NCBI GenBank assembly: GCA_963713855.1
Contig: OY970209.1
Span: forward strand, 384,001-448,000
Direction of reading: 5' to 3'
DNA from: an uncultured bacterium
GTDB taxonomy: Bacteria; Babelota; Babeliae; Babelales; Babelaceae
DNA: 64,000 nt
Part shown: positions 15,319 through 63,423 of the stretch, one piece after another
Layout: the number at the start of each line of letters is the position of its first letter
How positions within the stretch are numbered: the stretch's first letter is position 1
Notes under the pieces: generated by a model
The model's database searches: none
Seen by the model: the letters and a program-made list of their open reading frames with translations, nothing else
Told to the model about the DNA's origin: nothing
Translations under genes and position numbers: made by a program

Positions 15319-16413
15319 GTGATGTTAATGATGGGCATACGACTTTTGGGTGCTCTGGTCGTAGGTTTCTTTGCAAGCATTTATTTTGCTCCCGTGCTCA
15401 TTAAGTTAGCTCATGCCTTCAACTTTCTCGATCGACCTAATGGTCAGCTTAAAAATCATGGACAACCCATTCCTTACGCCGGTGGACTTGTTGTCTATTT
15501 GGGCATGCTCGTGTCTTTGATGCTTTTTTTTCCCTTAAAAGAGACAAACACATTCTTTTTGTTCGGCTCAACTTTCTTGCTCATGATAGGATTGATCGAC
15601 GATTGCATTTCTTTAAGCCCATTTCAAAAAATGAGTGGTCAACTGCTTGCGACTATTTGTTTTGTCAAAGGAGGGCTCTATCTTAAAGAAAAATTTCTCC
15701 TCGCGTATGATCATCCTCTTTCTTACTTTATCTGGATGTCCCTTTCCTCTTTTTGGATGCTCTCTATTATTAACGGCTTTAATCTTATAGATGTCATGGA
15801 CGGCCTTGCCAGCGTGGTGGCCTTGATGGCATCCTTTAGTTTTTTGGGCATGGCTCTTCTTGCGGGAGCATATACCCCAGCATTTCTTCTTGTGGCGCTT
15901 TCAGGCTCTCTTCTTGGCTTTCTATGGTACAATAAGCCCCCCGCAAAAATGTACTTAGGAGATGCTGGTGCATTATTTATAGGTGGTATCTTGGGGGCGG
16001 CTCCCTTTATGATTCCCTGGGGAACCTTTTCATTGTGCGGCTATTTTATTCCTGTGCTTATTTTGGCTATCCCTCTTCTCGAAATAGGTACGTTAATTCT
16101 CATACGTACTTATTTAAAAATACCTTTCTATAATGGAAGCCCGCATCATTTTTCACATTTCTTTAAAGCTCGCAGCTGGTCCATACACCAGATTTTAGCA
16201 TATACTATCGCATTCTCCATTTTGCTCTCGATGGCAGGATTCCTCTTTGCTCTTCAGCACATTACTTTTGTTGCTTTTGTCTCATTGTCGCTTATTCTTG
16301 TTGCTTTTTGGTATTTTATGCTCCTTTTTTCCAGAATCGGCTTAAAGGGCTTTGTGTTGCCCGGCTTTCTTTTTCGGGCAAAAAGAAGCGATTTTTTTGA
16401 AAAAAGCCTTTAA
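15319..16413 (+). CDS. MraY/WecA-family polyprenyl-phosphate HexNAc-1-phosphate transferase
   Basis: GLIDD, NLIDVMDGLA, YLGDAG motifs; many TM helices. Confidence 0.85.
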   Translation: MMLMMGIRLLGALVVGFFASIYFAPVLIKLAHAFNFLDRPNGQLKNHGQPIPYAGGLVVYLGMLVSLMLFFPLKETNTFFLFGSTFLLMIGLIDDCISLSPFQKMSGQLLATICFVKGGLYLKEKFLLAYDHPLSYFIWMSLSSFWMLSIINGFNLIDVMDGLASVVALMASFSFLGMALLAGAYTPAFLLVALSGSLLGFLWYNKPPAKMYLGDAGALFIGGILGAAPFMIPWGTFSLCGYFIPVLILAIPLLEIGTLILIRTYLKIPFYNGSPHHFSHFFKARSWSIHQILAYTIAFSILLSMAGFLFALQHITFVAFVSLSLILVAFWYFMLLFSRIGLKGFVLPGFLFRAKRSDFFEKSL

Positions 16414-29171: not shown

Positions 29172-30563
29172 ATGAAGAAGCTCTTTTTTGCAATTCTTTT
29201 TAGCTTTTTTGTCCCTACTCGGGTTTCATTTGGAGCATCTTTGCCCCAATTCAAAGATACTATAGATTCTTATAAAGAAATAGCTGGAAGTAATTTCATA
29301 GATGAAATTAAGTTGCCCTGTAAAAGCTTACATCAAGCATGCGGTCAACACAGTCAAGCAAAGCCTAAAAAAAAGATACTTATTGCCTGGAGTAAGGGTG
29401 GCGGGGCACATAAATCGATGCTTGATGCCCTTCGGGAATACTTGTGCGATGAATATGAGGTTATAGCTTTTAATCCTTTAGAGCGAATATGGACACGTTT
29501 TGATTTAATACGTTCTTGTTCCTGTGGGTACATGGATGGTGAGGATTTTTACAATTCTCTTTTAGCAAACGATTATCGTTGGATTATCAATAAAATATTC
29601 TTCTGCGGCACCGGTTCTATGAGGAGGCATACAAAATACATCGAAGATCAGCTTGAACTTTGCTTTCGTAAAGAAAGGCCAGATCTTATCATATCGGTCA
29701 TTCCCATCATGAATTACGCACTTAATGAGGTTGGAAGAAGGCTTCACATCCCGTTCTTGATGATTGCCCCCGATTGTGATACGACTCACTATCTTAATAA
29801 TCTGTATCCGACGCGTCCCTTTTACGCCACTCTTCCTTTTAAGGATGACCTTTTACGACAAAAAGCGAATGCCTCTTGGATTGAGGATCATTTTATCAAA
29901 GAATACGGTTTTCCCTTAAGAAAGAATTTTTTTGAACCGAAGAATAAGAAGGCCATTATTGAAAAGTTCGGGTTTCCAGAGGATGCTCCTCGCGTAATGC
30001 TTCTTAATGGAGCGACAGGCTCTTCTAAAGCTTTAAAATGCCTTAAACATCTTGCTAAAATAGATCGAAGGCTTCACTTAATTATTTGTATTGGAAAGAG
30101 TAAGCATTTAAAGCCTAAAATTCAAGAGCTTAAGTTTCCCGCTAACATAACGTATTCCATTATCGGATTTACAAAAAGGATTCCTGATTTAATGGCCGTG
30201 TCAGATATGCTTATCAGTAAGGAGGGAGCATCGACGGTGTGCGAGGCTGTTCATATGGAGCTACCCCTTATCCTTGACCATGTGTCAGAGCCTCTAGAGA
30301 TTGAGCGGTTACAGCCGGTATTCGTGCAAAGAAATAAGCTTGGCGAGCTTTTGACATGCTATGAAGATCTTCCACGTATTATACATAAACTACTTGATGA
30401 TACAGCATATGTTGCCGGTATACGAGCGCGTATGAAAGCGTTTAGTAACATGACGTTTCCCGAGCGACTAAAAACGCTTATTGAACACATACTTTCACAG
30501 TCGGCTCAAAAAAAATATACCCCTGAAGGAATTAATCCTGGCATGCGGTGGCTTAGGCCATAA
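29172..30563 (+). CDS. MGDG synthase-like glycosyltransferase (GT28) with signal-like N-terminus
   Basis: GGGAH, PDLIISVIP, GFPLR, GFT...LMAVSD...SK.G..T..EA motifs. Confidence 0.8.
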   Translation: MKKLFFAILFSFFVPTRVSFGASLPQFKDTIDSYKEIAGSNFIDEIKLPCKSLHQACGQHSQAKPKKKILIAWSKGGGAHKSMLDALREYLCDEYEVIAFNPLERIWTRFDLIRSCSCGYMDGEDFYNSLLANDYRWIINKIFFCGTGSMRRHTKYIEDQLELCFRKERPDLIISVIPIMNYALNEVGRRLHIPFLMIAPDCDTTHYLNNLYPTRPFYATLPFKDDLLRQKANASWIEDHFIKEYGFPLRKNFFEPKNKKAIIEKFGFPEDAPRVMLLNGATGSSKALKCLKHLAKIDRRLHLIICIGKSKHLKPKIQELKFPANITYSIIGFTKRIPDLMAVSDMLISKEGASTVCEAVHMELPLILDHVSEPLEIERLQPVFVQRNKLGELLTCYEDLPRIIHKLLDDTAYVAGIRARMKAFSNMTFPERLKTLIEHILSQSAQKKYTPEGINPGMRWLRP

Positions 30564-32928: not shown

Positions 32929-32942
32929 TAGCATTGCTTACC

Positions 32943-34049
32943 ATGTTTAGCACTTATAAAAAAAACAGAAGGAGAGCGTCAAAGCTCTCCTTCTGTTTTT
33001 TGAGTATATGCGCTGGTTTTTCTCAACTATTTCCCGGCGATTTTGCTAGTGCATTGAGAAAAAAAATCAAAAGAGACCCTCCGCCCTGGATGAGTGCGCA
33101 AATAGATACCGATTTAAGGCACTATAAAACTGGTATTACAAGAGCCGATATAGATGCTACCAAGTCTTCAATTATGTCTTATGCTCGTTGCAAGATAGGA
33201 GATAAGGGGATAACGATAGAAAGCAATGCCAAAAACGGTATTTCGCGCAATCGGCTAGATTTATTAAAAAGGGTCTTGCATAAGCTTCATAGGGCAGTAA
33301 AGCTTCCCAAACTCGATTTTTTAGTTGATCTTTTTGATGCGAGCGGATGTAAGGTAAAAAGAGCACCCGTTTTTTGTATCAGCAAGCATACCGACGATAC
33401 GCATGTAGTTCTAATGCCAGATTTCATAAAGTTTATGTGGGCTTCTACCTATATAAGTGACGTTTATCGGGGCAATAAGAGCTTTTCTTGGCATAGTAAA
33501 AAGCCACAAGCCTTGTGGCGGGGTTCGACGACTGGAGCGTTGGTTGATCATACGGATTTTGAACGTTTAAATCGTTCTAAATTGGTAGCACTTTCTCTTG
33601 AACATCCTAACCAGCTTAATGCACGTTTTTCTACAGTAACAAGGAATGATCGAAGGCTTGAAAAAATACTTAGGCAAAGGGGCATGTATAGCGATCATCT
33701 TTCTATGGCAGATCATCTTAAATATAAATATATACTCGCAGTTGACGGTAATACGTGGGCAAGTTCATATTTTTGGCAACTTTTTGGCAATTCTCTCATC
33801 TTAAAACAAGCCTCACCTTTTTCAGAGTGGTACCACGCAGCACTTAAAGCCTATACGCACTACGTGCCCTTTAATCGTGACCTGTCTGATCTTATAGAAC
33901 GTATTTCTTGGGCAAAAAAGAATGATAGAAAAGTGCGAGAGATAGTAAGGCAGGCTAACAACTTTGCTCGCTCGTATCTTAAAGAAGTAGATCTCTATTA
34001 CTATTTCTATCTGGCTCTGCGTGAGTACGAAAAGTTGCAGCGTTTCTAG
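32943..34049 (+). CDS. Glycosyltransferase family 90 (CAP10/KDELC-like)
   Basis: WRGSTTG, HLKYKYILAVDGN, EWYHAALKAYTHYVP motifs. Confidence 0.85.
   Translation: MFSTYKKNRRRASKLSFCFLSICAGFSQLFPGDFASALRKKIKRDPPPWMSAQIDTDLRHYKTGITRADIDATKSSIMSYARCKIGDKGITIESNAKNGISRNRLDLLKRVLHKLHRAVKLPKLDFLVDLFDASGCKVKRAPVFCISKHTDDTHVVLMPDFIKFMWASTYISDVYRGNKSFSWHSKKPQALWRGSTTGALVDHTDFERLNRSKLVALSLEHPNQLNARFSTVTRNDRRLEKILRQRGMYSDHLSMADHLKYKYILAVDGNTWASSYFWQLFGNSLILKQASPFSEWYHAALKAYTHYVPFNRDLSDLIERISWAKKNDRKVREIVRQANNFARSYLKEVDLYYYFYLALREYEKLQRF
32960..33001. terminator. Bidirectional intrinsic terminator after pal-like gene
   Basis: AAAAAACAGAAGGAGAGC-GTCAAA-GCTCTCCTTCTGTTTTTT. Confidence 0.8.
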
Positions 34050-39159: not shown

Positions 39160-41367
39160 CTATCCAATAAGGGGGTGATTTTTTTGTTCATTTTCAAAAC
39201 ATTGTTGCGTGCTTAAAGCTGTCACATCTATCGCCTGTGTTAAAAGGCGTGGTGCATGTAATTCAAGGCCGAGTTGAATAATAAGATCTATAAATTCCAT
39301 TGGCCTTAGTCCCCATTCTGCAGCTTGATGAAATAAGCACGTTGCGGGTGTAAGTCCTGGAAGCGTGTTGAGTTCCAAAACGATGACACGGTCAGTTTTT
39401 GTGGGGCTCATAGCGGCCGATTGATAAAAGCAATCGATTCGCGCGTATCCGGCGCAACCTGTCACTTTATAGGTATCTTCTATTGTTTTTAATACTAGCG
39501 TTGTTGCAGTTGCCGGTATCGGTGCCGGTGTTTGGTTTTCCCCTGCACCTGGCAAAAACTTTTCTTCTATAGACAAAACACCAGCTTGCGCAACTGTCAT
39601 GCTCGGTGGTAATGCTCGGCAGATACTATTACCCACAACTCCGACACTCAGCTCCAAACCTTCAATGCACTCTTCTATTAGTACCGCATTTTTGCCCGCA
39701 CCAAACACTTCATTAATCGCTTTTTTAAGCGCTGAAGCATTGGTAACTTTTGCGACCATAACGCTGCACCCGTCATCATGCGGTTTTACAATAAGGGGGA
39801 AGGGCGGCAAGCCGTGCTTTTCGGGATCATTATGCCACTCTTTCGCTTCAATAAGTACACCCGCTGGTACAGGTATACCGTGCTCTTTTAAAACTTGTTT
39901 TGTTTTCCATTTATCCATACAAAGAGCGCTTGCAAGAACGCCTGAGCCGTTATAAGGTATGCCGAGCGTTTCCAGTAATCCTTGTATAGAGCCGTTTTCG
40001 CCATGTCCTCCGTGCAACGCTACGAATGCAAAATCGATAAGATTCGGTAAGTCTTGCCAAGAGATTTTCATTGAAGAGGTAAGCTCAGCTTCTATCTCAG
40101 CAGTTGTGTTACGCACCAGCAGTCGTTGGTCGATGCAAAACAATTCTAAGTTTGAGCTTAAGAATAGCGGGATAGCCGCATATTTTTGTGGAGAAAGCTT
40201 ATAAATCACATTCCGCCCGGAGGCAAGAGAAATTTCTTTTTCGTTTGATTGGCCGCCTAAAAGAATACCAACGCGCATTTTTTTTGCGTCTGTAATTTTA
40301 GTGTCGTGTTTTAGGTTTTCTGCATTTTTAAGCATAGTGTACGTATGTAATTCGGTGGCTATAAGGTGGTTGATAAATTGGGTATGGCTCATATTTATCT
40401 CGGCCGCTTGCAGGAATGCAAGACTTGCTGGATCCATGCCAGAAAAAGTATTTGGGTCAATAATAACGACCCGATTATCATGTGTCAAAATACCATCAAT
40501 GCGTCCCAAGTTGTGTATACTCAAGGCTGACATAACGCGAAGGCATGTGTCTTTAATACGCTGCTCGGCTTCTTTTGTGCATCGTGCCGGTGTACGTTTT
40601 AAAGTTTTACCAGGCATGTATTTCTGCTCGTAATCAAAAAAGTCAGATCCCTCATTCAGGACTATCTCAGTTGGAGGAAGCGGTAAAAGAGTTTTTTTAG
40701 CGTAATCGGTAATGACAATGCACGAAAATTCCATGCCGCGTACATATTCTTCTATAAGCACTTTTTGCTGTATTCCCGGTGTGATAGTTCGTGCTTTTAT
40801 GATAGCACTTTGTAGTTCATGTTCGTTTTTTACCACGGTTATACCTAAGCTCGATCCCTCATGGCAAGGCTTTACGATGCAGGGAAATCCAAAAGGTGGC
40901 GTAGAAATGTTTTTATCATAAGGCTCGACGATAACTGCGTTTGGAACATCGATGTTTGCAGATTTTAAAAAAGTCCGCTGCATCACTTTGTCCATGCTTA
41001 GAGCGCTTGAAAATACTTTGGATCCGAAATAGGGGATGCCAAGAATTTCAAGAAAGCCTTGTATCGATCCATCCTCCGCGTACCTTCCATGCTGAGCTAT
41101 ATACATAAAATCAATGATCTGCTTAAGTGCATCCCATGCAACCGGCTCGGCTTCAGCTTCGAGCCGATGTTCAAAGTCACTTGTTTTACCGCGGTGCAAA
41201 AAATGGATTGGCATTTTATAGAGAGTGCCCGTTTTTGTTTGAAAAAGGGGAACAACGCGATAGCACGAGGTATCAAGATGATCGCACACCGTTCTTCCAG
41301 AATTCAATGAGACTTCGCGTTCTTGAGATTTACCACCCATAAGAACGCCAATGCGTAGACTGTGCAT
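39160..41367 (-). CDS. ddl: Tandem double-domain D-alanine--D-alanine ligase
   Basis: Two complete GGxSxE(R/K)E(V/I)SLxSG ... HG..xE(D/N)GSIQG.LE.LGIPY.GS ... MDK ATP-grasp modules. Confidence 0.88.
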   Translation of the reverse strand: MHSLRIGVLMGGKSQEREVSLNSGRTVCDHLDTSCYRVVPLFQTKTGTLYKMPIHFLHRGKTSDFEHRLEAEAEPVAWDALKQIIDFMYIAQHGRYAEDGSIQGFLEILGIPYFGSKVFSSALSMDKVMQRTFLKSANIDVPNAVIVEPYDKNISTPPFGFPCIVKPCHEGSSLGITVVKNEHELQSAIIKARTITPGIQQKVLIEEYVRGMEFSCIVITDYAKKTLLPLPPTEIVLNEGSDFFDYEQKYMPGKTLKRTPARCTKEAEQRIKDTCLRVMSALSIHNLGRIDGILTHDNRVVIIDPNTFSGMDPASLAFLQAAEINMSHTQFINHLIATELHTYTMLKNAENLKHDTKITDAKKMRVGILLGGQSNEKEISLASGRNVIYKLSPQKYAAIPLFLSSNLELFCIDQRLLVRNTTAEIEAELTSSMKISWQDLPNLIDFAFVALHGGHGENGSIQGLLETLGIPYNGSGVLASALCMDKWKTKQVLKEHGIPVPAGVLIEAKEWHNDPEKHGLPPFPLIVKPHDDGCSVMVAKVTNASALKKAINEVFGAGKNAVLIEECIEGLELSVGVVGNSICRALPPSMTVAQAGVLSIEEKFLPGAGENQTPAPIPATATTLVLKTIEDTYKVTGCAGYARIDCFYQSAAMSPTKTDRVIVLELNTLPGLTPATCLFHQAAEWGLRPMEFIDLIIQLGLELHAPRLLTQAIDVTALSTQQCFENEQKNHPLIG

Positions 41368-41503
41368 GCTTATTTTTTCTTCCATGAAAGATATACTCAA
41401 AAAGTGTATCATCAACATATGTAGTGTCACAAGAAAAAACTTGTGAGTATTTGCTTCCACTTGTTACTCTATAAATCGATAAAGAACATAAGGATTTTTT
41501 GTA

Positions 41504-51849: not shown

Positions 51850-52992
51850 ATGTATAAAAAGTTGTTAAGTGTGTTGCTATTTATTATAGTCATTTTACAG
51901 GTCGACGTGAGTTTTGGTCAATCCTCCTATAAGGAACGCTTGGTTGCTTTAGTAGAAGATAACCGAATACCTGTATGGATGTCCGAGCAGATTAAGAGCG
52001 ATCTAGAGCCTTTTAAAGCGAACCGTATACCGCTTGAGTCGATTTGCGAGACCTCCCCGAAGTGGCAGACCTCGGGTGTTGTTCGCTATACTATCAAAGA
52101 GGGAAAATTAACAATACATCCTTCTCCGCTTTGTTCAACTCTCAGTGTACTTGAATCGAGATGCAAGCAGTATAATGCTATTGTTAAAGCGTTAACCGAT
52201 ACAATACGCGTACCTGATGTTGAATTCACCGTATATCTGGGGGATGGGTTTATAGGCGGAAATTCACACACCCTGCCAGGGCCTATATTTGGTTTTTCGA
52301 AAGACAAAAATTTAGACACGAATGCTCTATTAGTTCCAGACTTTCATGCATTAGAGATCTATCCGCCGCTTATTGAGGATGTTGAAATAGGAAATAGGGC
52401 ATATCCTTGGCATGTCAAAGTCAATAAGGCCTTTTGGAGAGGAGCTAGCACCTGTAATTATCTCGACATAACTCTGAGTAATTATACCGCTTGCCCCAGG
52501 CTCAAATTAGTAGAAATAGCACGTATCAATTCTGATTTGATTGACGCTGGTTTAACCATGTGTGTACAAATGGATGAAGAGACCAGAAAGCTATTCTCAA
52601 ACTATCTCGTATCTTCAGTATCCGTGAGTGAGCACCTTAAATATAAGTACCTCATTTTAACAGATGGTAACGGAGCCGCTTATCCACGGGGGTTTTGGCA
52701 TTTATTTGGTAATTCTGTTGTTTTTAAGCAAAAGTCGGACAGTGTACAATGGTTCTATCGAGGCTTGAAACCATTTGTGCATTTTATTCCTTTTAATGAA
52801 GATTTTAGCGATTTAATTGAAAAGATACAATGGGCAACGAACCATGATGCAGAAACCCGTTTTATCGCAGCTCAAGGCCGCGCCTTTGCTCTAAACAATC
52901 TATGCTTAGAAAATAACTTGTTTTATTTGTATATCTTACTCAAGGAATTTTCTGCACTACAACAAGCCAGTAATTATAAGCAAGAGCTATAG
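51850..52992 (+). CDS. Glycosyltransferase family 90 (CAP10/KDELC-like), signal peptide
   Basis: FWRGAST, HLKYKYLILTDGN, QWFYRGLKPFVHFIP; paralog of 32943..34049. Confidence 0.85.
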   Translation: MYKKLLSVLLFIIVILQVDVSFGQSSYKERLVALVEDNRIPVWMSEQIKSDLEPFKANRIPLESICETSPKWQTSGVVRYTIKEGKLTIHPSPLCSTLSVLESRCKQYNAIVKALTDTIRVPDVEFTVYLGDGFIGGNSHTLPGPIFGFSKDKNLDTNALLVPDFHALEIYPPLIEDVEIGNRAYPWHVKVNKAFWRGASTCNYLDITLSNYTACPRLKLVEIARINSDLIDAGLTMCVQMDEETRKLFSNYLVSSVSVSEHLKYKYLILTDGNGAAYPRGFWHLFGNSVVFKQKSDSVQWFYRGLKPFVHFIPFNEDFSDLIEKIQWATNHDAETRFIAAQGRAFALNNLCLENNLFYLYILLKEFSALQQASNYKQEL

Positions 52993-53002
52993 ACTCGAAG
53001 TT

Positions 53003-53725
53003 TTATCGTTTTATTATTATGCAGAGGCTAGGGTAAAAATGGATAGATTCTATGTGTTCTTGGTGGTAATTTAAACTACGATTCACTTCTTCTGGCCATT
53101 TTGTTTTATCAGCCGATCCACATCGGGCGCAGCCATAATTAAGATCATCAATGAGGTTCTGAAAAAATCGTATAGCGGACGCGGCCCCTGCTTTTGGATT
53201 GCTAGTACTTCCCTCAGAACCGAAATCCTTCCAGTAGGACGTATGCAAGTCCTCTACGACATACACACCTCCACTTTTTAAAAAAGGGAATAGGGTTTGA
53301 AAACTTAAAATTTGTGCCCCCATAAAATGACAACCGTCGTCAATAATAATGTCAAATTCGCCACCTGATTGAGCGGCGACTTCGAGTAACTCTGCTTTAT
53401 CGTGCTGATTAGCTTTATGGAGTTTGCATTTAGATGTAAGACCCTGCAAATGTTCCCAGCATTTATCATTGATATCCATAAAGTGTAACTCTTGCGCATG
53501 GGGAAAATAATCTTGCCACATACGGGCTGAGGCACCTTGCCAAAATCCTATCTCTAATAATTTTATTGGTTTATCTTTAAAACGGCTAAAATAGCTATCA
53601 TATATGAGTGTGTAACGATGAAAAAGAGGACCTTTATCCGAACCATAGCGATCAGCTAAATCATCGAGTTCACACGCTTGCATTGATGTTATAAAAAAGA
53701 GAGAGAATAGTGATATAATTTTCAT
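53003..53725 (-). CDS. SAM-dependent (sugar O-)methyltransferase, signal-like N-terminus
   Basis: YGSDK, LLEIG, FDIIIDDGCH, GGVYVVEDLHTSYW. Confidence 0.85.
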   Translation of the reverse strand: MKIISLFSLFFITSMQACELDDLADRYGSDKGPLFHRYTLIYDSYFSRFKDKPIKLLEIGFWQGASARMWQDYFPHAQELHFMDINDKCWEHLQGLTSKCKLHKANQHDKAELLEVAAQSGGEFDIIIDDGCHFMGAQILSFQTLFPFLKSGGVYVVEDLHTSYWKDFGSEGSTSNPKAGAASAIRFFQNLIDDLNYGCARCGSADKTKWPEEVNRSLNYHQEHIESIHFYPSLCIIIKR

Positions 53726-53737
53726 TGCATTTTCATT

Positions 53738-54451
53738 TCAATCTTGCGTTGAACAGGTATCACCGGTACATAGTATAGGTTTTTCGATCCACCAAAAACG
53801 GGGCTGCAGTGGATGAACATTAACCTTTAAGTTATTTTCAGCGCAAAATTGATTTATTGCTTGTGGAACTCCTGGCCACACTGTAGCATAATCATCGCCT
53901 GCAATAATTCCTCCACCACGGATTTTAGGATACCATGCTCTTAAATCAGCAATCACATATCCATAATTATGATTGGCGTCAATGAAAACGAAGTCAAGTT
54001 CTCGCTCTTTAAAGTGATCGACAGCGTTTAGCGAGGTATCCCTTAATAATTCAAATCGCGAGCCAAACAGCGAAAATTGAAGCTTTACTCTCCAGTAAAG
54101 AATATCAAAGTACTTTTGAGGTAATGGTGTGGTAGCCGGATCTTGGTAGTCGATAAAAGGGTCTATGCCATATAACTTGTCCACTTTGGTATGCTCGAGC
54201 AAATATTTACAATGAGCCCCGGTTAAAATACCTACTTCACAGCCAATGCTCAGGCCTAACCGATTGATAAGATCTGCAAAAAGACTGTGGTAGGGCTCTT
54301 CATGATCAATCTGTTCAATAACTTTTAGTGCTTGTATGATTTCTGATTCTGAAAATCCTGTAATTTGTGCATAATCGGTTACAGCAAGCTTACCTGGTAA
54401 AAGGTGGCAAAAACTTAATCCCAAGACAAATAATATTTTTCTGGCTAACAT
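53738..54451 (-). CDS. SAM-dependent methyltransferase (Methyltransf_24-like), signal-like N-terminus
   Basis: GCEVG, LYGIDPF, DFVFIDANH, GGIIAGDDY; start 54451 after AGGAGAG. Confidence 0.85.
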   Translation of the reverse strand: MLARKILFVLGLSFCHLLPGKLAVTDYAQITGFSESEIIQALKVIEQIDHEEPYHSLFADLINRLGLSIGCEVGILTGAHCKYLLEHTKVDKLYGIDPFIDYQDPATTPLPQKYFDILYWRVKLQFSLFGSRFELLRDTSLNAVDHFKERELDFVFIDANHNYGYVIADLRAWYPKIRGGGIIAGDDYATVWPGVPQAINQFCAENNLKVNVHPLQPRFWWIEKPILCTGDTCSTQD

Positions 54452-54488
54452 GTCTCTCCTTTTTTTGAGCATCTTCATAGGTAACTCA

Positions 54489-55772
54489 TTAAGCTCGATT
54501 TTTAAAGGCTGAAGATAACTTATTGAAAAACTTTTTTGATTTCGTGATAAGACCCTTATCCGTAATAGCATTCTTATTACCAAGTGTAAAGCGGCTAGGT
54601 TTTATAAGATTAATAAATTTTTGCTTTATTGCACCATCACTGTAGCGTAAAACCCATCTTCTTCTCTGTGGAGCTTGCGATAAGTAATGCCCATAGTTAT
54701 CATATACGCGTCGCAAAGCTTTCTTGGCATCACGTATATGGGCATTGAAATTGTTACCAGAATAAGTATTAAAAAATGGATGGTACATCTTTTCAATCAA
54801 GGGAGCAGGAACGCACGCAGCAAGACCCGATGAGCAGATAGTTGAATGAGCGGTATGATCACTTAAAACAACCGGTATGCCAAGAGCAAAAGCTTCACGT
54901 GGTAAGATGGAAAATCCTTCGCCTTTGGAAAAACTAGCAACAACATCGATAGATTTTAAAAGGTCTATGTATTCAGCCTCACTCAGGCTTTTAAAAATGC
55001 ACTTTACATTAGTAAGCTTTAAACGATTGATTAATTCTTGGATTTTTTTTACCGTTTCGCGCTCCTGGGGATGCCCTGTGACACGACCGTGCATTATGAG
55101 TCTTACACCGGGGTTATTGCTAAACTCTTCAGCAAATGCTTTAAGAAGAAGCAGATGATTTTTTCGTTCATAAAAACCTGCAGATAAGCCGAAGGTAAAA
55201 GGAGTATGCGCTCTTTTTTTTAAAGGCTGCTCAAGCAGTTTTTGAAGATAAAGACCGCAGGGTAAAACAAATATCGGGATTTCTACGCCCGCTTTTTCAA
55301 AGACTGAAACGAGGAATTTATCAGGTACTACTAATGCATCGAATTTATTATTAATAATGCTTACCCATGAAGGGGGCGGTGCGTCTGTTTCTATCATTAA
55401 GTAAGCAATCTTAATTTTAGAAGAGGATAGAGCATCTTCCGGCTTTTCAGCAAGTCCAAGTAAATCGATGAAAAAAGCAACTCTGCCGGGCCTTTCAGGT
55501 CTGCTTACTATTTCCTGAACTGCGGGAGAGACGTTTTGGAGATCGATTGCTTGAGGATTAGTCGCTTTAAAATTTATTTTCAAGTCCTTGTATAAATGAT
55601 CCATTACCCAAATAGGTATTCGATATAGTCCGTCACAATACTTCAGTTTTCCGACTATCGTTACGTCATAATCAAACGGTTTACGTTTAGGTAAAGTTTT
55701 TCTGGGTTTAGAAGTCGAACCCAGGCTTACCTTACCGAGTATCAGAATGAAAACGAAGAGCTTAAAATTCAT
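54489..55772 (-). CDS. GT-B glycosyltransferase (GT4-like), signal-like N-terminus
   Basis: RKN motif and EGFSILPREAFALGIPV (E-x7-E). Confidence 0.85.
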   Translation of the reverse strand: MNFKLFVFILILGKVSLGSTSKPRKTLPKRKPFDYDVTIVGKLKYCDGLYRIPIWVMDHLYKDLKINFKATNPQAIDLQNVSPAVQEIVSRPERPGRVAFFIDLLGLAEKPEDALSSSKIKIAYLMIETDAPPPSWVSIINNKFDALVVPDKFLVSVFEKAGVEIPIFVLPCGLYLQKLLEQPLKKRAHTPFTFGLSAGFYERKNHLLLLKAFAEEFSNNPGVRLIMHGRVTGHPQERETVKKIQELINRLKLTNVKCIFKSLSEAEYIDLLKSIDVVASFSKGEGFSILPREAFALGIPVVLSDHTAHSTICSSGLAACVPAPLIEKMYHPFFNTYSGNNFNAHIRDAKKALRRVYDNYGHYLSQAPQRRRWVLRYSDGAIKQKFINLIKPSRFTLGNKNAITDKGLITKSKKFFNKLSSAFKNRA

Positions 55773-55787
55773 GTTTTTAAGGTGCCT

Positions 55788-57362
55788 TCATGTTTTTCTT
55801 AGTATTGGGTTCTTAAAAAATAAGCCTACTTTTTTAGGGCTATAGATTGTGCTAGCCCATGCTTGAGTAAATTGACCTATGGATGCAAAATTGAGTTTAT
55901 TAAGAGTCTCTAAGACATAATTAGTTTTATAGAGTATTGAACCTAGTTTATTTGGTTGTGGCCAGATGTGCTTGCCATGGTGCAACTGCCATGCCATTGT
56001 GTCGTTGCCTAAGAAGGCAGCATTTTTATCAAGAACAGTACTTGCTGGTTGACTCAGGTGTAGGTAAAAGCCTAGAGCAAATGTTTTCTCTAGTTGCTTA
56101 ATGCATTCGTTAAGATTGAGCGCATGTGTATTAATGTAGCTATCTGTCGACAATACCACATGTTTTCTAGCAGCTTTGAGTATTTTTCGTAACGAGTTTT
56201 TTAGTGCATCTCTATTAGCGGAGTGGTTACGTGTAAAATTAACTTTTGAAAAATCCTTACGCATTCCCGCATACCGTTTAGCAACAGAATTTTTAGAACA
56301 CTCATAGAGAACGTGTATTTTTCCTACGCCACGTACATTCTTTTGCACTGCTTTTAGACATTTACTAAGTGCTTGGGGATTATTATGAGATAGTAAAATA
56401 ACATCAGCTCTTGCGTGATCAAATTGCTTGCTTATTCCAACGGGTAATTGTGCTAATGGCTGGTATTTTTCCCATGTTCTTACAAGTTGATTTATGTTCC
56501 ATTGCGCTCCTCGGTTTTCATCTTTTCCGTTGCCTTGGTTTTGTTGGCTTAATGGGTTTTGCCAGTTCCAACGATAGAGAATCTTATCTATAAACTTGCT
56601 GTGATGACTGACCATCTCCAAAATAGGGTACATAAAACAAGAATCTGCTGATGGCGATAATGGCTTAAAACTGCCCTCATAAAGTAGATCTTCGAGTTTA
56701 ATCTTTTTAAATATACATGCGTAAAATGAACGAGGATGAAACCAATCCCAAACATAGGGCACAGCTGGATCCCAATGATCTTGTCTATAGCTATGCGCTT
56801 TTATGACAGCATCGGGTATTGCTACAAAAGGCTTTTCCCAAGGCCCTGGAGGAACATGGGGTTCAAATGACATTAAGCCATAGGTCATCCATATGCCAGG
56901 TGTTTTGTAAGCATCGTTAATCGTCGCAAATACAGTATCTTCAGAAAAGTAATCATCACCATCGATATTCAATAAAATTTCATCATCATTGCATAGATGT
57001 GCTGCGCGATAATGATTGGCCAGCTGGCTTTGCCATTCTTCGTTTCTTACAAGAGTGCATTTATGCTCTAATTTATGTTCTTTAAAATACTCTTCAACTA
57101 AATTGGGAGTATTATCCGTAGAAGCATCATCTACGTAAATGAGGCGATAGTTGTGATATTTTTGAGAAAAGATAGAATCAAGGTTTCGTCGGTACCATCG
57201 GGCATTGTTATATGAAGTGACAACGACAGCAATAGGATGCTCTTGAGGATTTTGCTTAGCAGCTAATTTGTTATCTAAACTAAAAAAACATGCAGATAAA
57301 AAGAGAAAAATACTATTGATTTGAAGCTTTGTCTTACTCGTCATTAGTTCCCTATCGTGCAT
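55788..57362 (-). CDS. GT2 glycosyltransferase with C-terminal extra domain, signal-like N-terminus
   Basis: VVTSYNN, YVDDASTD, IDGDD. Confidence 0.85.
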   Translation of the reverse strand: MHDRELMTSKTKLQINSIFLFLSACFFSLDNKLAAKQNPQEHPIAVVVTSYNNARWYRRNLDSIFSQKYHNYRLIYVDDASTDNTPNLVEEYFKEHKLEHKCTLVRNEEWQSQLANHYRAAHLCNDDEILLNIDGDDYFSEDTVFATINDAYKTPGIWMTYGLMSFEPHVPPGPWEKPFVAIPDAVIKAHSYRQDHWDPAVPYVWDWFHPRSFYACIFKKIKLEDLLYEGSFKPLSPSADSCFMYPILEMVSHHSKFIDKILYRWNWQNPLSQQNQGNGKDENRGAQWNINQLVRTWEKYQPLAQLPVGISKQFDHARADVILLSHNNPQALSKCLKAVQKNVRGVGKIHVLYECSKNSVAKRYAGMRKDFSKVNFTRNHSANRDALKNSLRKILKAARKHVVLSTDSYINTHALNLNECIKQLEKTFALGFYLHLSQPASTVLDKNAAFLGNDTMAWQLHHGKHIWPQPNKLGSILYKTNYVLETLNKLNFASIGQFTQAWASTIYSPKKVGLFFKNPILRKT

Positions 57363-57641
57363 ATACGCCTTAAGACTTTTAAAACTTGGATGACTATAAT
57401 TTACCTGGATAATTATAATATACCTGGAATCTACAGCGCAAGATTGTTCTTAAGTCGGTACTTCTATTCCCTCCAATGAAGAGGGGGATGGTAAGATATC
57501 TAATTGAGGTAATGGTCGAATGAAAATTGAGGATTACGGTGTAAAGTTCTTGATAGGTACAAAATCGTAGTATGTTGAAACTTTTAATCATTCATGCTAA
57601 GAATCTAATGACAATGCTTTTGCGTAGGTGGAAGGAAGATA

Positions 57642-59336
57642 ATGGCATTTATAAAACGAGCTTTTCTTTTATTTGTTATTGGTATACAAAGTTTTTTTTT
57701 AGAAGCCATCAGTATCGAACCTTCCATTAATACGTTAATACCAGAAAAACCATTGGTTGTGGTTATTACTTCCTATAATAATGCTCAATGGTTCGCTAAG
57801 AACTTGGAATCAGTTTTAACGCAAAATTATAAAAATTATAGAGTTATCTATATCGACGATGGTTCGCCGGATGGAACTGCTCAACTTGTAGATGGTTATA
57901 TCAAGGAACATAAGGAGGAACACCGTTTTCTTCTCATTAAAAATAGCCAAAATATTGGACAAATGGCCAATCACTATAAAGCAGTTTGCTACTGTGCTGA
58001 TGATGAGATCGTTGTTCACTTGGATGGTGATGATTTTCTTATCGATAAAAATGTCTTAAAAGTTGTCAACACTATATACAGCACTCATGATGCCTGGCTT
58101 ACTTATGGTCAAGCAAGTCTGTGGCCCTTACTAGAAGAAGTATGGCCTGCTACTGAGGTAGACGTCAAAATAGAGGAAGCTATCGCAAGCAATAAATTTA
58201 GAAAAGAATGGATGTATGGACACTTAAGGACTTTTAAGGCAGCTCTTTTTAAACAGATAAAACTACAAGACTTAATCCATAAGAACAGCTTTAAAACTAT
58301 GTCTCCAGCTCCAGATGTAGCATTTATGTATCCTATGCTTGAGATGGCTGGCACACATGGATATTACGTTAAAACCCCTTTGTACTTATGGAATCGTAGT
58401 AATCCTAACAGTCAGCATAATCTTAATTTGGCTGCCGTTTTTGATCTTTTGTATACCATTCAAGCATGGGAGCCCTATCAGCGCCTTGTCACGCTAAAAC
58501 CTTCTTTTAATAGTAGTAAAAACCAGCTTAAAGCGGATGTTTTCCTCTTTGCTCATGAAATTACCAGTGGCAATCCTGCTTTAGCGAGTTTAAAATTAAA
58601 GGCAAATGACCTTGGCAAAATAACACTGTTTTATGATAAAGCTAAACCTCAGCAAATCGTTGATATGAAGAAAAAGCATCCCAAGGTAGCTTTGATACCT
58701 TTTGCTGACAAGTCATTAAAAACTTTCCAGACATGCCTTCTGAATACCCCGAGTGATCACCTTATTCTTATGAAGGATAACGTGTCTCTAAAAAACAGTA
58801 CGGATATGAAAAAAGCGATTTGTTCACTTGAGACGACCTTTGCGCAAGGGTTTTACTTTGACATAGATGGCGCTTATTTAGAGGCAAGGAGTTTTTCTTA
58901 TGTCGAGCCATTTGATCATTTAATTGGTTGGCAGCCAGAAACGAACCCATTAAATGCGAACGATTTAAATATGATCATGTATCGAAAGCGAGATATTCAA
59001 CAGCAAGTAGCATTAATGCATGGGCAACAAAAGCCATTCTCATATTTTGTTCTACCATTTCAACCTAGACAGCTGCTTGTTGGATGGAAAAATAGTCCTA
59101 TAAAGGTCGTTAAAACCGAAGTTAACAATAACAGGAAGGCAGTTAAGAGTAAAACTCCTAATAAAAAAATAGAAAAGCCCAAAAATAAGAAGAAAATGGT
59201 TGAGAGTAAACTACCCGGCAAGAAAATAGAAAAGAACAAAAGCGATAATAAGGACGCGGTAAAGAATAAAGCCGCTAAGAAGAAGGCAGCAAAGAACAAA
59301 AGCGATAACAAAAAATTGAAAAGGGGTAATAGATGA
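57642..59336 (+). CDS. GT2 glycosyltransferase paralog with Lys-rich tail, signal-like N-terminus
   Basis: VITSYNN, YIDDGSPD, LDGDD; shares YPxLEM and LExTFAxGFY with the divergent neighbour. Confidence 0.85.
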   Translation: MAFIKRAFLLFVIGIQSFFLEAISIEPSINTLIPEKPLVVVITSYNNAQWFAKNLESVLTQNYKNYRVIYIDDGSPDGTAQLVDGYIKEHKEEHRFLLIKNSQNIGQMANHYKAVCYCADDEIVVHLDGDDFLIDKNVLKVVNTIYSTHDAWLTYGQASLWPLLEEVWPATEVDVKIEEAIASNKFRKEWMYGHLRTFKAALFKQIKLQDLIHKNSFKTMSPAPDVAFMYPMLEMAGTHGYYVKTPLYLWNRSNPNSQHNLNLAAVFDLLYTIQAWEPYQRLVTLKPSFNSSKNQLKADVFLFAHEITSGNPALASLKLKANDLGKITLFYDKAKPQQIVDMKKKHPKVALIPFADKSLKTFQTCLLNTPSDHLILMKDNVSLKNSTDMKKAICSLETTFAQGFYFDIDGAYLEARSFSYVEPFDHLIGWQPETNPLNANDLNMIMYRKRDIQQQVALMHGQQKPFSYFVLPFQPRQLLVGWKNSPIKVVKTEVNNNRKAVKSKTPNKKIEKPKNKKKMVESKLPGKKIEKNKSDNKDAVKNKAAKKKAAKNKSDNKKLKRGNR

Positions 59337-60184
59337 TAAAAAGGTTGTTTTTGTTGATGCTTATGATGTTTTTATCTGCTACTATAGAGCAGTCCCTGAT
59401 TGCCAAAAATAACAAGTCAACGTCCCAGGCCAAGATACTGTATCTTGATCTAATCAAGAAGTCTTTGATTAACCATATTTACCAAGATGCCGGCTTAGAT
59501 TATGCTCACGGTGAAGTAAAACCCTATGATTCAGCAGTCAGAGAACAAGGAAAAGATTGGCCAGTTCGTGCTCATACCATGATTGGCTTGAAGCGCTTGG
59601 ACAATCTGCAGGCCTGTATTGAAAGTGTTTTGAAAAATAATGTTCCGGGGGACCTTATAGAAACGGGGGTATGGCGTGGAGGGGCGACTATTTTAATGCG
59701 AGCTGTTCTTAAAGCTTATGGTGTTACTAATCGTAACGTATGGGTTGCTGATTCTTTTCAAGGCTTGCCAAAACCCGATACTGAAAAATATCCTGAGGAC
59801 TCTTTTCTTGCTCAAAACAATATCCAAGATATTAAAGAACTTGCTGTTGGCTTAGAAGAGGTAAAATCTAACTTTAGAAAATATGACCTTTTGGATGGTC
59901 GCGTAAAGTTTTTAAAAGGATGGTTTAAAGACACTTTACCATCGGCACCTATAAAGAAATTGGCTGTACTTCGCCTCGATGGAGATCTCTATGAATCTAC
60001 CATACTGGCTCTTAGGCACTTGTATCCCAAGCTGTCTATTGGAGGATACGTTATTATAGATGATTACAATGGCCTAGATGATGCATGTAAAAAAGCAGTA
60101 AACTATTATCGTAAAAAGCATCACATTACTGAACCAATTATCAAGATTGACAGTGAAGGGATCTTCTGGCAAAAGAAAAAATAG
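59333..60184 (+). CDS. TylF/MycF/NovP-family sugar O-methyltransferase, signal-like N-terminus
   Basis: TMIGLKRL, GDLIETGVWRGG, DSFQGLP, GWFKDTL, LRLDGDLYES, IDDY. Confidence 0.92.
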   Translation: MIKRLFLLMLMMFLSATIEQSLIAKNNKSTSQAKILYLDLIKKSLINHIYQDAGLDYAHGEVKPYDSAVREQGKDWPVRAHTMIGLKRLDNLQACIESVLKNNVPGDLIETGVWRGGATILMRAVLKAYGVTNRNVWVADSFQGLPKPDTEKYPEDSFLAQNNIQDIKELAVGLEEVKSNFRKYDLLDGRVKFLKGWFKDTLPSAPIKKLAVLRLDGDLYESTILALRHLYPKLSIGGYVIIDDYNGLDDACKKAVNYYRKKHHITEPIIKIDSEGIFWQKKK

Positions 60185-60241
60185 TTGATTGACACAAAAC
60201 GTATATATACTTGTTGTGATTCTCAATAAAAAGAGGCAGTA

Positions 60242-61231
60242 ATGAAATCAATAAGGTCTTATTTTACGAGGATTATTGGAGCACTCCTTATAAGTTTTAC
60301 CTTACAAGTAAGGTGTGCTCAAGCGCCCACGTTCCTCGTGTTTGGGGGAAAAAGTGGTTGGATTGGGCAAAAGATAGTCAAATTACTTGAAGAACAGGGC
60401 CATAAGGTAGCTGTTGCACAGTCACGTCTTGAAAATCGACAAGATGTCGAAAAAGAGATTGAAACGGTACAACCAAAGTACGTTATTAACGCAGCGGGCC
60501 TCACTGGTAGGCCAAATATAGACTGGTGTGAAGACAACCAACCAGCAACTATTAGAGCAAATATTATAGGAGCATTAACTCTTGTTGATGTTTGTTTTTT
60601 GCGAGGTATCCATGTTACGAACTTTGGTACTGGTTGCATTTACGAATACGATAAGGATCACGCCCTTAACAGTGGCATCGGTTTTAAAGAAGAAGACACT
60701 CCTAATTTTACGGGTTCTTTTTATTCAAAAACGAAAGTTATGCTTGATGAACTCTTCAAATCGTATAATAACGTTTTAAATTTAAGATTACGTATGCCTA
60801 TTTCTGATGATTTACATGGGCGTAGTTTTATAACTAAAATTGTACATTACGATAAGGTAATTGACGTTCCTAATTCGATGAGCGTGCTTTCTGATCTTTT
60901 ACCCATTGCAATAAAGATGACGGTAAAAGAATTAAAAGGTAACTACAATTTTGTAAATCCGGGAGCTATATCGCATTCGGAGATATTAGATCTCTACAAA
61001 ATTTTTATAGATCCAAGTTTTACTTATAAAATCTTTACTGTTGCTGAACAGGACACCATCCTTAAAGCCCGTCGCTCTAATAACGAGCTTGATGTAAGTA
61101 AGCTTCTTAAAGAATTTCCCGAGATACCACCCATTAAAGATTCTATAAAGGAGATGTTTAAAAGAATGAAAAACAGCAAAACGACATTAGATGAGCTTCT
61201 TAAAAACGATTATCACATAATTGGCACCTAA
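60242..61231 (+). CDS. NDP-4-keto-6-deoxyglucose 3,5-epimerase/4-reductase (plant NRS/ER-type), signal-like N-terminus
   Basis: GWIG, NAAGLTGRPNIDWCE, TGCIYEYD, GIGFKEEDTPNFTGSFYSKTK, RMPIS, RSNNELD. Confidence 0.9.
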   Translation: MKSIRSYFTRIIGALLISFTLQVRCAQAPTFLVFGGKSGWIGQKIVKLLEEQGHKVAVAQSRLENRQDVEKEIETVQPKYVINAAGLTGRPNIDWCEDNQPATIRANIIGALTLVDVCFLRGIHVTNFGTGCIYEYDKDHALNSGIGFKEEDTPNFTGSFYSKTKVMLDELFKSYNNVLNLRLRMPISDDLHGRSFITKIVHYDKVIDVPNSMSVLSDLLPIAIKMTVKELKGNYNFVNPGAISHSEILDLYKIFIDPSFTYKIFTVAEQDTILKARRSNNELDVSKLLKEFPEIPPIKDSIKEMFKRMKNSKTTLDELLKNDYHIIGT

Positions 61232-61254
61232 AAGTATTGCAGTGAAGGTAACTA

Positions 61255-62427
61255 ATGAAGCGCTTTAATTTCTTTTTTATAATGAGCACCGTACAACTAT
61301 TTTCATGGGCAGCGATCAACAATGCTTATGAATGTTCTCTTAATGGGCAAGTTGGACTTGCTGACTTAGAAATGGTATCTACTGGAAATGCTACCAATCA
61401 TAAAACAGTTCTCATAACTGGTGGCGCAGGGTTTATTGGAAGCAATTTCCTGCGCTATATGTTTGACAAATATCCAAGCTACCATTTTATAGTCCTAGAC
61501 TTGCTCACGTATGCTGGATCTCTCGACAACATACCGGACTATATTAAGTTTTCTAAGCGCTTTGAATTTAGCTATGGCTCAGTGACCAATATTCCCCTTG
61601 TTGATTCTCTCATGCAAAAAGCCGATTATGTGGTACATTTTGCCGCTGAAACACATGTTACTCGTAGTATAGCCGACGACGCTGTGTTCTTTGAATCTGA
61701 TGTACTTGGGTCGCGCGTTCTTATGTCGAATCTTGTTAAACATGCTCATAAGGTAGAACGGTATATCCATATATCGACCTCAGAGGTATATGGCACTGCT
61801 CTAGTAGAACCTATGACCGAAGAACATCCTTTAAATCCTCGTTCTTCTTATGCTGCTGCAAAGGCTGGTGGCGATAGGCTTGTGCATGCTTATTGGTGTA
61901 CCTATGATATTCCGGCAGTTATTGTAAGACCCTTTAACAATTATGGGCCTCAGCAGCATCCTGAAAAAATGATGGCGCGCTTTATTACCAGCGCTATTAG
62001 AGAGCAGCCATTAACCATTCATGGGACGGGGCTGCAAGCACGTGATTGGCTACACACCAATGATACCTGCGCTGCTTTAGATGCTGTCTTACACGCCAAA
62101 GATTTTTCTAAAATAAAAAATCAAGTGATCAATCTTGGTACCGGTAAAGCGGCATCTGTTTTGGCTATTGCCAAAATGATTCTTAGCTTTTTTAATAAGT
62201 CTGAGGAGTTAATTAGCCACATATTAGATCGTCCAGGTCAGGTAGTAAATCACATTTCGTCAATCGAAAAAGCAAAGAAACTATTGGACTGGCAAGCAAA
62301 TGTGCAACTGGAAGAAGGCTTAAAAGAAGTGTGTGAGTGGTATGTTAATAATGTCGATCATTGGAAAAAAGCTGAGTTTATGAAGCGCATACCTTTACGC
62401 TTTAATAGCACTTTAGTTATCCAATAA
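61255..62427 (+). CDS. rfbB: NDP-glucose 4,6-dehydratase (RmlB/RfbB-like), N-terminal extension
   Basis: TGGAGFIGSN, DLLTYAG, HFAAETHV, YAAAK, NNYGP.QHPEK. Confidence 0.85.
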   Translation: MKRFNFFFIMSTVQLFSWAAINNAYECSLNGQVGLADLEMVSTGNATNHKTVLITGGAGFIGSNFLRYMFDKYPSYHFIVLDLLTYAGSLDNIPDYIKFSKRFEFSYGSVTNIPLVDSLMQKADYVVHFAAETHVTRSIADDAVFFESDVLGSRVLMSNLVKHAHKVERYIHISTSEVYGTALVEPMTEEHPLNPRSSYAAAKAGGDRLVHAYWCTYDIPAVIVRPFNNYGPQQHPEKMMARFITSAIREQPLTIHGTGLQARDWLHTNDTCAALDAVLHAKDFSKIKNQVINLGTGKAASVLAIAKMILSFFNKSEELISHILDRPGQVVNHISSIEKAKKLLDWQANVQLEEGLKEVCEWYVNNVDHWKKAEFMKRIPLRFNSTLVIQ

Positions 62428-63047: not shown

Positions 63048-63423
63048 TGGTGGAGGCGATGGGAATCGAACCCATGTCCGCAATACCTAGACCTTAAAGC
63101 ACTCCATGCTCAGTCCCTGGTTATACAGCGCATCTACCCCAAAGACAAGATCTGATGCACAGTCTTATTTTGTATAATATCAAGCTACAAAGCAAGAAAA
63201 CCTCACTTGATAGTCACATCTTATTACTACGAGTTGGCTCAATTGATGGACACATCAAGACAACAAGCGCTTAGTGCCCTTAGGCAAAAGCTGGGACAGC
63301 CATGCTGCTGCCCCCTACGGTATGTTCGCCGTTTATTGTTTAGATTCTTTTTTTACGAGCACTGAATCAAAGCTCGGCATGCACTCCAAGATTTCAATAC
63401 CACGTCGAAGCCAGTACGCCCCC
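63048..63423 (-). ncRNA. ssrA: tmRNA
   Basis: 5' GGGGGCGTACTGGCTTCGAC; 3' GGGTTCGATTCCCATCGCCTCCACCA; internal tag frame 63330-63280 GEHTVGGSSMAVPAFA-stop. Confidence 0.95.

Follow-up and report, generated by a model that had tools for sequence, protein, structure and literature searches.

Predicted Sec leaders on nine glycan-building enzymes of a Babelaceae bacterium and a possible host-fed periplasm

The locus and its enzymes

Nine neighbouring genes for glycan-building enzymes, each with a signal-like leader ahead of its catalytic fold, are found in a stretch of 64,000 nucleotides (the window) from an uncultured bacterium of the Babelaceae (assembly GCA_963713855.1, contig OY970209.1, positions 384,001 to 448,000 of the forward strand). 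An earlier note on this DNA had described them as a complete glycan-building locus. All nine open reading frames (ORFs) are intact and in place, as are the five N-termini quoted in that note, and the enzyme families it named agree with Pfam: GT90, Methyltransf_24 twice, GT4, GT2 twice, TylF, an epimerase/RmlD-type and a 4,6-dehydratase-type enzyme (Table 1), with domain matches beginning past residue 30 in the nine proteins. It is also correct that no flippase, Wzy or ABC exporter gene is present among the nine genes or their direct neighbours. On the other hand, the genes are divided between the two strands in three blocks (51850-52992, +; 53003-57362, -; 57642-62427, +) instead of forming one operon, and 'complete' was an overstatement, since no sugar-activating nucleotidyltransferase gene lies within the locus.

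Table 1. Features of the window with a predicted leader; the nine genes of the locus come first (aa, amino acids; GT, glycosyltransferase; SAM, S-adenosylmethionine; NDP, nucleoside diphosphate)
Feature	Window position	Strand	Evidence
GT90 glycosyltransferase, 380 aa, Sec-type leader	51850..52992	+	PF05686 E 2e-37, aa 46-374; leader flagged
Class I SAM methyltransferase (Methyltransf_24), 240 aa, Sec-type leader	53003..53725	-	PF13578
Class I SAM methyltransferase (Methyltransf_24), 237 aa, Sec-type leader	53738..54451	-	PF13578
GT4 glycosyltransferase, 427 aa, Sec-type leader	54489..55772	-	PF00534
Two-domain GT2 (GT2 + degenerate second GT-like domain), leader	55788..57344	-	PF00535
Two-domain GT2, 564 aa, Sec-type leader	57642..59336	+	PF00535; homologs
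TylF/NovP-type sugar O-methyltransferase, 283 aa, Sec-type leader	59333..60184	+	PF05711 E 9e-99, 330 bits
Eukaryote-type bifunctional 3,5-epimerase/4-reductase (NRS/ER), 329 aa, Sec-type leader abutting Rossmann fold	60242..61231	+	
RmlB-like NDP-sugar 4,6-dehydratase, T-S-E for T-D-E, 390 aa, Sec-type leader	61255..62427	+	PF16363
Second GT90, leader (start probably a few codons in)	32934..34049	+	PF05686 E 1.5e-39
GT28-like glycosyltransferase, leader flagged	29172..30563	+	PF04101 E 1.4e-10

Leader calls and family-matched controls

Leaders were called by two simple self-written signal rules, one loose and one strict. Each rule flags eight of the nine proteins, the loose one missing GT4 and the strict one the dehydratase, so that none of the nine escapes both, which bears out the basic-then-hydrophobic extensions noticed earlier on all nine. 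The length of the run carries no weight in itself: about half of the ORFs of at least 100 amino acids in this genome are flagged (556-702 of 1237), and a run of at least nine flagged ORFs appeared in 1951 of 2000 shuffles. The run was therefore dropped as a significance argument and, because such a run is expected in this genome, significance rests on family-matched controls; the surprising part is the type of enzyme that bears leaders, not the number in a row.

These controls concern mainly three families. For TylF, leaders are present in 14 of 16 distinct copies of the window's phylum versus 14 of the 120 top matches from all sources (one near-identical copy). For NRS/ER, 103 of the 120 top homologs bear a leader, as do 15 of the 16 phylum copies parsed (29 phylum loci, 13 of them not parsed); the four patescibacterial/archaeal and the four viral copies parsed are all leaderless, the latter being the four NRS/ER loci found in a scan of viral contigs. 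Of 120 dehydratase homologs, 107 have an extension, flagged as a leader in 100 of them, and a short leaderless form adjoins a DegT aminotransferase (locus L002). Conservation of the extensions in relatives, which the earlier note had put forward as a check, is thus seen for the TylF, NRS/ER and dehydratase families. In addition, both relatives of the locus GT90 found among 201 genomes are leader-bearing, the first methyltransferase has leader-bearing homologs in loci L023 and L027 (47-48% identity), and GT4 has five leader-bearing paralogs (33-39% identity) beyond the window (G000:C1:475560-492373, where G000 denotes the window's genome). Intact N-termini of ribosomal proteins, elongation factors and RNA polymerase are all unflagged in the genome, and the ribosomal and RNA-polymerase operons yield as flagged ORFs only two frameshift fragments and SecY.

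Wrong start codons could mimic leaders, and the possibility of true starts lying downstream had been raised. It holds in part: the second methyltransferase probably starts at the ATG at 54451, behind an AGGAGA ribosome site (a TTG further out would extend the frame into GT4), and the first GT2 at the ATG at 57344, but both keep their leaders. As the source of the leader, a wrong start is rejected for NRS/ER, which has no start between leader and fold, and is disfavoured in general by homolog conservation; Met40 in the dehydratase and Met9-12 in TylF are possible starts that homologs do not support. The genes of EF-G, EF-Tu, L2, RpoB and RpoC are split into pieces (G000:C1:838000-846000 and 648685-657085), which points to indel errors in the assembly, so that absences and start calls need caution.

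Type of leader

The anatomy of the leaders was considered on 102 leader-bearing NRS/ER and 95 dehydratase homologs. The N-region is net-positive in 96 of the former and 92 of the latter (188/197), and the median hydrophobic core is 11-12 residues long, versus 20 for the anchors of UppS in the same phylum. A candidate site with small residues at -3 and -1 is found in 101/102 NRS/ER and 90/95 dehydratase leaders, by a rule that is permissive and has no shuffled control, and in the 34 shortest NRS/ER leaders an Ala peak stands one or two residues before the first Rossmann strand. The twin-Arg motif occurs in none of the 197 leaders (NRS/ER 0/102, dehydratase 0/95) and TatC was not found in the window's genome (91% complete), which argues against Tat substrates; a lipobox is present in only 3/197 (NRS/ER 2/102, dehydratase 1/95), against lipoproteins; and the cores are short for the span of about 20 residues of an N-terminal anchor. 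SecY, SecD, SecF, SecG and signal peptidase I are all present in the genome. By their sequence, the leaders look like cleavable Sec signals rather than anchors, and export of some kind appears highly probable.

Sugar chemistry and predicted product

The NRS/ER aligns over its full length with PDB 4QQR (E 1e-107, the closest solved structure), with the catalytic Cys, the YxxxK motif and the Lys, and all three motifs are kept in 108 of 120 homologs; it also matches 7JID (E 1e-63) and mimivirus L780. The dehydratase has Ser at the position of the catalytic Asp of RmlB, whose catalytic motif is T-D-E, and [TS]-S-E is found in 120/120 close homologs. Its score against TIGR01181 (RmlB), 302 bits, falls below the cut-off of 365, but RmlB is still the best family and structure match, while an identity as LegB is rejected (156 bits versus a cut-off of 475). 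TylF matches NovP 2WK1 (E 2.5e-87) and the mycinamicin O-methyltransferase (MycF), with conserved acidic motifs and a score over the PF05711 cut-off. In relatives' loci the partner of NRS/ER is dehydratase-like in 18/35 and PseB-like in 6/35, the latter making an N-acetylated 6-deoxy-L-sugar possible. The O-methylated rhamnose product suggested earlier therefore stands in so far as the NRS/ER and TylF matches fit an O-methylated L-rhamnose-type sugar; with a dehydratase off the RmlB motif, rhamnose itself is unproven, though plausible.

Regarding the transferases, the C-terminal half of the first GT2 resembles stand-alone ORFs in relatives' clusters (E 1e-14 to 1e-22). At the C-terminus of the second GT2 (window 59100-59336, +), about 70 residues form a lysine-rich tail, and a basic linker stands behind the leader of GT4. 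Outside the locus, the second GT90 (32% identity to the locus GT90, leader flagged) and the GT28-like gene are likely part of the same exported set. A WecA-like phosphoglycosyltransferase, under the cut-off, lies at 15319-16413 (+) directly after IF-2 and possibly provides a lipid-linked primer for the exported transferases. Elsewhere in the window, a tmRNA gene (63048-63423, -; ARAGORN) adjoins smpB at the window end, and an ORF of 766 aa (39160-41460, -) holds two tandem D-Ala-D-Ala ligase units.

Genomic context

The genome is a single contig of 1.52 Mb with an ankyrin expansion, three ATP/ADP translocases and type II-type secretion machinery (two secretins, two GspF, a prepilin peptidase); the bacterium probably parasitises protists. 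Together with its named nearest homologs and the missing LpxC, the genome size and the ankyrin, translocase and secretin genes suggest the phylum Dependentiae (Babelota). Not found in the genome, at the completeness given above, are LpxC, MetK, ATP sulfurylase, RmlC and DsbB, and none of its three nucleotidyltransferases is RmlA. Without MetK and ATP sulfurylase, SAM and PAPS (3'-phosphoadenosine 5'-phosphosulfate) must come from outside, and the lack of DsbB is weakly consistent with a reducing periplasm. A genome-wide search for the Wzx family gave only MurJ, below the cut-off, and no flippase, polymerase or Wzm/Wzt could be named in the 80 of 83 ORFs with multiple transmembrane segments that were scanned, about 20 of which matched nothing; several ABC-2 permeases and one MATE protein remain candidate exporters. 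Five EamA-family carriers are encoded, one of them adjoining a leader-bearing GT32.

A second leader-bearing glycan cluster, interspersed with housekeeping genes, lies at G000:C1:474322-494160 (loci L058 and L059) and contains two GMDs, five GT4s, GT2s (one of them fused to ankyrin repeats), FkbM and other methyltransferases, and a sulfotransferase. Elsewhere in the genome, leaders are borne by ManC, NDK, NAD kinase, G6PD, PGM/PMM, isopentenyl phosphate kinase, acetyltransferases and GT32s, and leader-bearing sulfotransferases are present. PGM/PMM and NAD kinase are single copies, both leader-bearing, whereas leader-bearing and leaderless copies of G6PD, NDK and TrxR coexist. The PGM/PMM (G000:C1:979276-980754, -) has Ile at the start Met of relatives, and its leader is also found in G001, a genome of the same genus. 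As general companions of NRS/ER, exported G6PD, NAD kinase and PGM are unsupported beyond this genus or one other genome. The leaderless set, consisting of GalU, GlmU, two epimerases, three GT4s and one GT2, appears to be kept for cytoplasmic use. Isopentenyl phosphate kinase (over the NCBIfam cut-off; G000:C1:1044404-1045282, +) has a leader-like start and UppS (G000:C1:781248-782045, +) an N-terminal anchor, seen in 12 of 30 loci examined; together they could supply a carrier lipid from host isoprenoids. Two further observations concern candidate glycosyltransferases: a multi-pass membrane protein with tetratricopeptide repeats (G000:C1:302024-305182), TMTC-like by eye and free of Pfam glycosyltransferase matches, adjoins a GT14-family gene, and four related leader-bearing proteins with a glycosyltransferase-like start have no Pfam match (G000:C1:36626-37495 and 1457679-1460910).

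Distribution and origin

In the window's phylum, 37 of 201 genomes encode NRS/ER, as do 6 of 201 in the phylum to which a Simkania record belongs; TylF is present in 12/201 genomes and the GT90 family of the locus in 3/201; the rarity of the last two marks the locus as a variable cassette. Clusters of relatives add leader-bearing UDP-glucose dehydrogenase, GMD, a fucose-synthase-like enzyme, PseB-like enzymes, GT6 and an acetyltransferase. In a FastTree phylogeny of NRS/ER (192 rows, with the root chosen at the patescibacterial and archaeal copies), leader-bearing enzymes form a single clade (support 0.99) with the chlamydial copies nested inside. Its sister group includes a plant RHM protein as well as one drawn from a collection of eukaryotes, and entry P0244 of the tree is from Phlomoides rotata. 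A eukaryotic donor of NRS/ER is thus likely from the tree, and the leader would stem from a single gain, retained in two phyla at a core identity of about 60%. The Simkania genome (G205) carries both a leaderless rmlC-rmlD-rmlB set (L214) and a separate leader-bearing dehydratase-NRS/ER pair (L217), a duality which argues for two compartments.

A comparable cluster exists in the cultured Babela massiliensis, where supplement file 9 of PMC4378268 lists six GT4s, GMD, two methyltransferases, a GMA12/MNN10-type transferase and sulfate adenylyltransferase, 7 of the 11 enzymes being SignalP-positive in the published annotation; in the same source, the NDK copies score 2 and 0 and the three TrxRs 1, 0 and 1. 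Judged by eye, the GT4s of this cluster resemble the window GT4.

Proposed pathway and its compartment

According to the textbook view, nucleotide sugars, SAM and NADPH are kept out of the periplasm, so that bacteria need lipid carriers and flippases to build surface glycans; a Sec-exported sugar pathway, if true, breaks this rule. The reading proposed here, held with even confidence for and against, is that the nine predicted Sec-exported enzymes build an O-methylated 6-deoxy-L-hexose surface glycan in a host-fed periplasm. The enzymes would cross SecY unfolded, lose the leader and fold in the periplasm, to which an outer membrane without lipopolysaccharide (LPS) would admit host nucleotides, sugar phosphates and cofactors. 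There, the dehydratase and the NADPH-using NRS/ER would convert NDP-glucose (or NDP-GlcNAc) to NDP-L-rhamnose (or its N-acetylamino form), glycosyltransferases would place the sugars on an envelope acceptor and the three methyltransferases would cap them. Assembly outside the inner membrane would explain the lack of need for a flippase. Regarding the outer membrane, Babeliales are described as lacking most LPS genes (PMC4776705).

The choice of compartment depends on enzymes tethered to the inner membrane. A SAM-dependent cyclopropane synthase has an N-terminal anchor in 14/20 loci, and in 13 of these 14 the N side is the more positive, which predicts an outward-facing enzyme; a lipoprotein form was rejected (lipobox in 2/20 loci, the others being anchored or leaderless). 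At a strict threshold, 68 of 201 genomes encode a TrxR-thioredoxin fusion, with a leader in 28/30 loci (by eye mainly anchors, five lipoprotein-like and one cleavable-like) and with redox and NADPH motifs kept in 22/30. In the window's genome, two such membrane-anchored fusions (G000:C1:499880-501331, -, with an altered NADPH motif, and 1283902-1285395, -) are found beside a plain cytoplasmic TrxR. Tethered enzymes of this kind suggest that SAM and NADPH are available on the outer face of the inner membrane, and type II secretion would be a difficult way out for proteins that are tethered. The anchor of UppS was dropped as a proof of outward topology, because basic residues often follow it. 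The earlier note had proposed an exported pathway acting in the host cytosol or vacuole: the export is supported by the anatomy of the leaders, but these locations rank below the periplasm because the tethered SAM- and NADPH-using enzymes appear to face outward. A host-fed periplasm is accordingly given an even chance of being the compartment, as predicted from sequence.

Several findings weigh against the periplasmic pathway. In the relative G006, a Wzx gene (L114:2441-3712) lies near the leader-bearing cluster, beside a leaderless GT2 (to 5322). Exported G6PD is rare, occurring in G000 and G001 (4/201 genomes matched at a strict threshold), and so is exported NAD kinase (2/31). When 346 of the 356 cluster representatives of flagged soluble ORFs were scanned (the other ten being window genes), about 16 were housekeeping false positives of the rules, mostly wrong starts or frameshift fragments, and one gene caller began TylF at Met9, trimming the leader (P0405). 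The TrxR-thioredoxin fusions show no uniform charge bias (13 N>C, 9 C>N, 8 ties). In Babela massiliensis, the SignalP scores are low (1-2 of 3) and 4 of the 11 enzymes score 0, two with a TMHMM helix only and two with neither (PMC4378268); moreover, the vacuolar growth of this species adds a barrier between periplasm and host cytosol. Finally, the two secretins and two GspF of G000 make onward secretion available.

Such onward transport is the essence of a rival explanation that is possible but clearly less probable, in which the enzymes, once exported by Sec, are carried on by type II secretion or in outer-membrane vesicles to the host cytosol or the lumen of the vacuole. There they would draw on host nucleotide sugars, in the manner of a giant-virus factory, to make a matrix or coat or to remodel glycans of the host. 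Besides the machinery itself, it has in its favour the same kind of leader on ankyrin, F-box and ubiquitin-type proteins, the ankyrin-fused GT2 of the second cluster and the eukaryotic type of NRS/ER; there are also precedents in the Chlamydia glycogen made in the vacuole from host UDP-glucose (PMC4829429) and in C. destructans (Chromulinavorax), which sheds vesicles and replicates in the host cytoplasm (PMC6561590). Its weak points are the seemingly periplasm-facing tethered SAM- and NADPH-users and the exported NDK, PGM, ManC and G6PD, which would be superfluous in the cytosol of the host but not in the lumen of a vacuole; a type II cargo signal, moreover, is unreadable from sequence. The opposite arrangement, a self-supplied 'bacterial Golgi' in which the bacterial cytoplasm makes or gathers the donors and inner-membrane carriers pass them out to periplasmic enzymes, is improbable. 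Leaderless GalU and GlmU and the EamA carriers would suit it, eukaryotic nucleotide-sugar transporters being members of the same superfamily, but the sugar-converting enzymes are themselves exported, as are ManC and the only PGM/PMM, and with MetK not found SAM would need import and then re-export.

That the leaders are uncleaved anchors holding a cytoplasm-facing enzyme complex on the inner membrane, which was the second alternative of the earlier note, would preserve ordinary access to cofactors and has a parallel in the long UppS anchors, of unclear orientation. It is nevertheless disfavoured, and decidedly improbable, in view of the short cores, the positive charge before them and the small residues directly before the Rossmann fold; the duplicated leader-bearing and leaderless pathways would also remain unexplained and the product would still need an exporter. 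Hardly probable at all is the view that the leaders are a by-product of a lineage adding signal peptides freely, with exported enzymes that do little. The flagged half of the ORFs, the 44% secretome reported for C. destructans (PMC6561590) and a dehydratase without the RmlB Asp would agree with it, but the leaderless dehydratases carry the same T-S-E motif, the catalytic motifs of NRS/ER are kept, the N-termini of intact housekeeping proteins are unflagged, and the leader, once gained, was apparently held across two phyla.

Returning to the periplasmic pathway, a broader and more tentative proposal, short of even confidence, is that the periplasm of Dependentiae may serve as a second, host-fed cytoplasm with flippase-free building of surface glycans, and that the kit was passed to host-sharing chlamydiae. 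It would span sugar-nucleotide pathways, methylation, sulfation, regeneration of NTP and NADPH, and a thioredoxin system, and would include a eukaryote-derived NRS/ER given a signal peptide once. If true, the Sec-exported pathway itself would assign a role to some of the 44% secretome of Dependentiae, so far without explanation, and hint at what replaces LPS on the surface. The similar cluster of the cultured Babela massiliensis, with its paired leader-bearing and leaderless NDK and TrxR, makes this pathway testable.

Comparison with known systems

No description of such a leader-bearing sugar pathway was found in the literature searched, mostly without subscription papers, and the accessible text of PMC12172432 holds nothing bearing on the trait beyond a cytoplasmic location. 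The closest in lineage and leaders is the Sec secretome of Dependentiae (PMC6561590, PMC4378268), for which the Babela list includes SignalP-positive GT4s, GMD, NDK and TrxR. The effectors discussed in these two papers are ankyrins, proteases and hydrolases, and in their main texts 'glycosyl' appears in one DNA glycosylase in one and zero times in the other. In Chlamydia trachomatis, glycogen of the inclusion lumen is likewise made by carbohydrate enzymes, including phosphoglucomutase, that act outside the cytoplasm on host UDP-glucose (Gehre et al. 2016, PMC4829429). Those enzymes lack a signal peptide, use type 3 secretion, make a storage glucan and have no need of NADPH or SAM, whereas Sec-type leaders are found here on sugar-nucleotide synthases, transferases and methyltransferases.

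The two-enzyme route to UDP-L-rhamnose of mimivirus, R141 (UGD) and L780 (UGER), also belongs to a protist parasite that uses host substrates (PMC9614988), and 7JID and 6VLO are among the structure matches of the sugar enzymes of the locus. The viral enzymes differ in being made in the host cytosol and leaderless (4/4 loci parsed), and the dehydratase of the window is nearer to bacterial RmlB, with T-S-E. Plant NRS/ER and the C-terminal domain of RHM share the 4QQR match (a plant protein), the sister position in the tree and the catalytic Cys/Tyr/Lys motifs, but are cytosolic and leaderless.

Bacterial rmlABCD loci with Wzx/Wzy or ABC export are the textbook arrangement for surface glycans and show the same clustering of sugar-nucleotide enzymes, GT2, GT4 and methyltransferases; the present locus differs from them in having no RmlC, no RmlA and no Wzx above the cut-off, and in bearing leaders on every enzyme. 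As for compartments, the lumen of the endoplasmic reticulum and Golgi contains transferases acting on nucleotide sugars and a source of NADPH, and the intermembrane compartment of Ignicoccus is metabolically active between two membranes. The likeness is partial in both cases: in eukaryotes the donors of rhamnose and fucose are cytosolic products that are then imported, and Ignicoccus supplies its own energy, unlike the host-fed periplasm proposed here.

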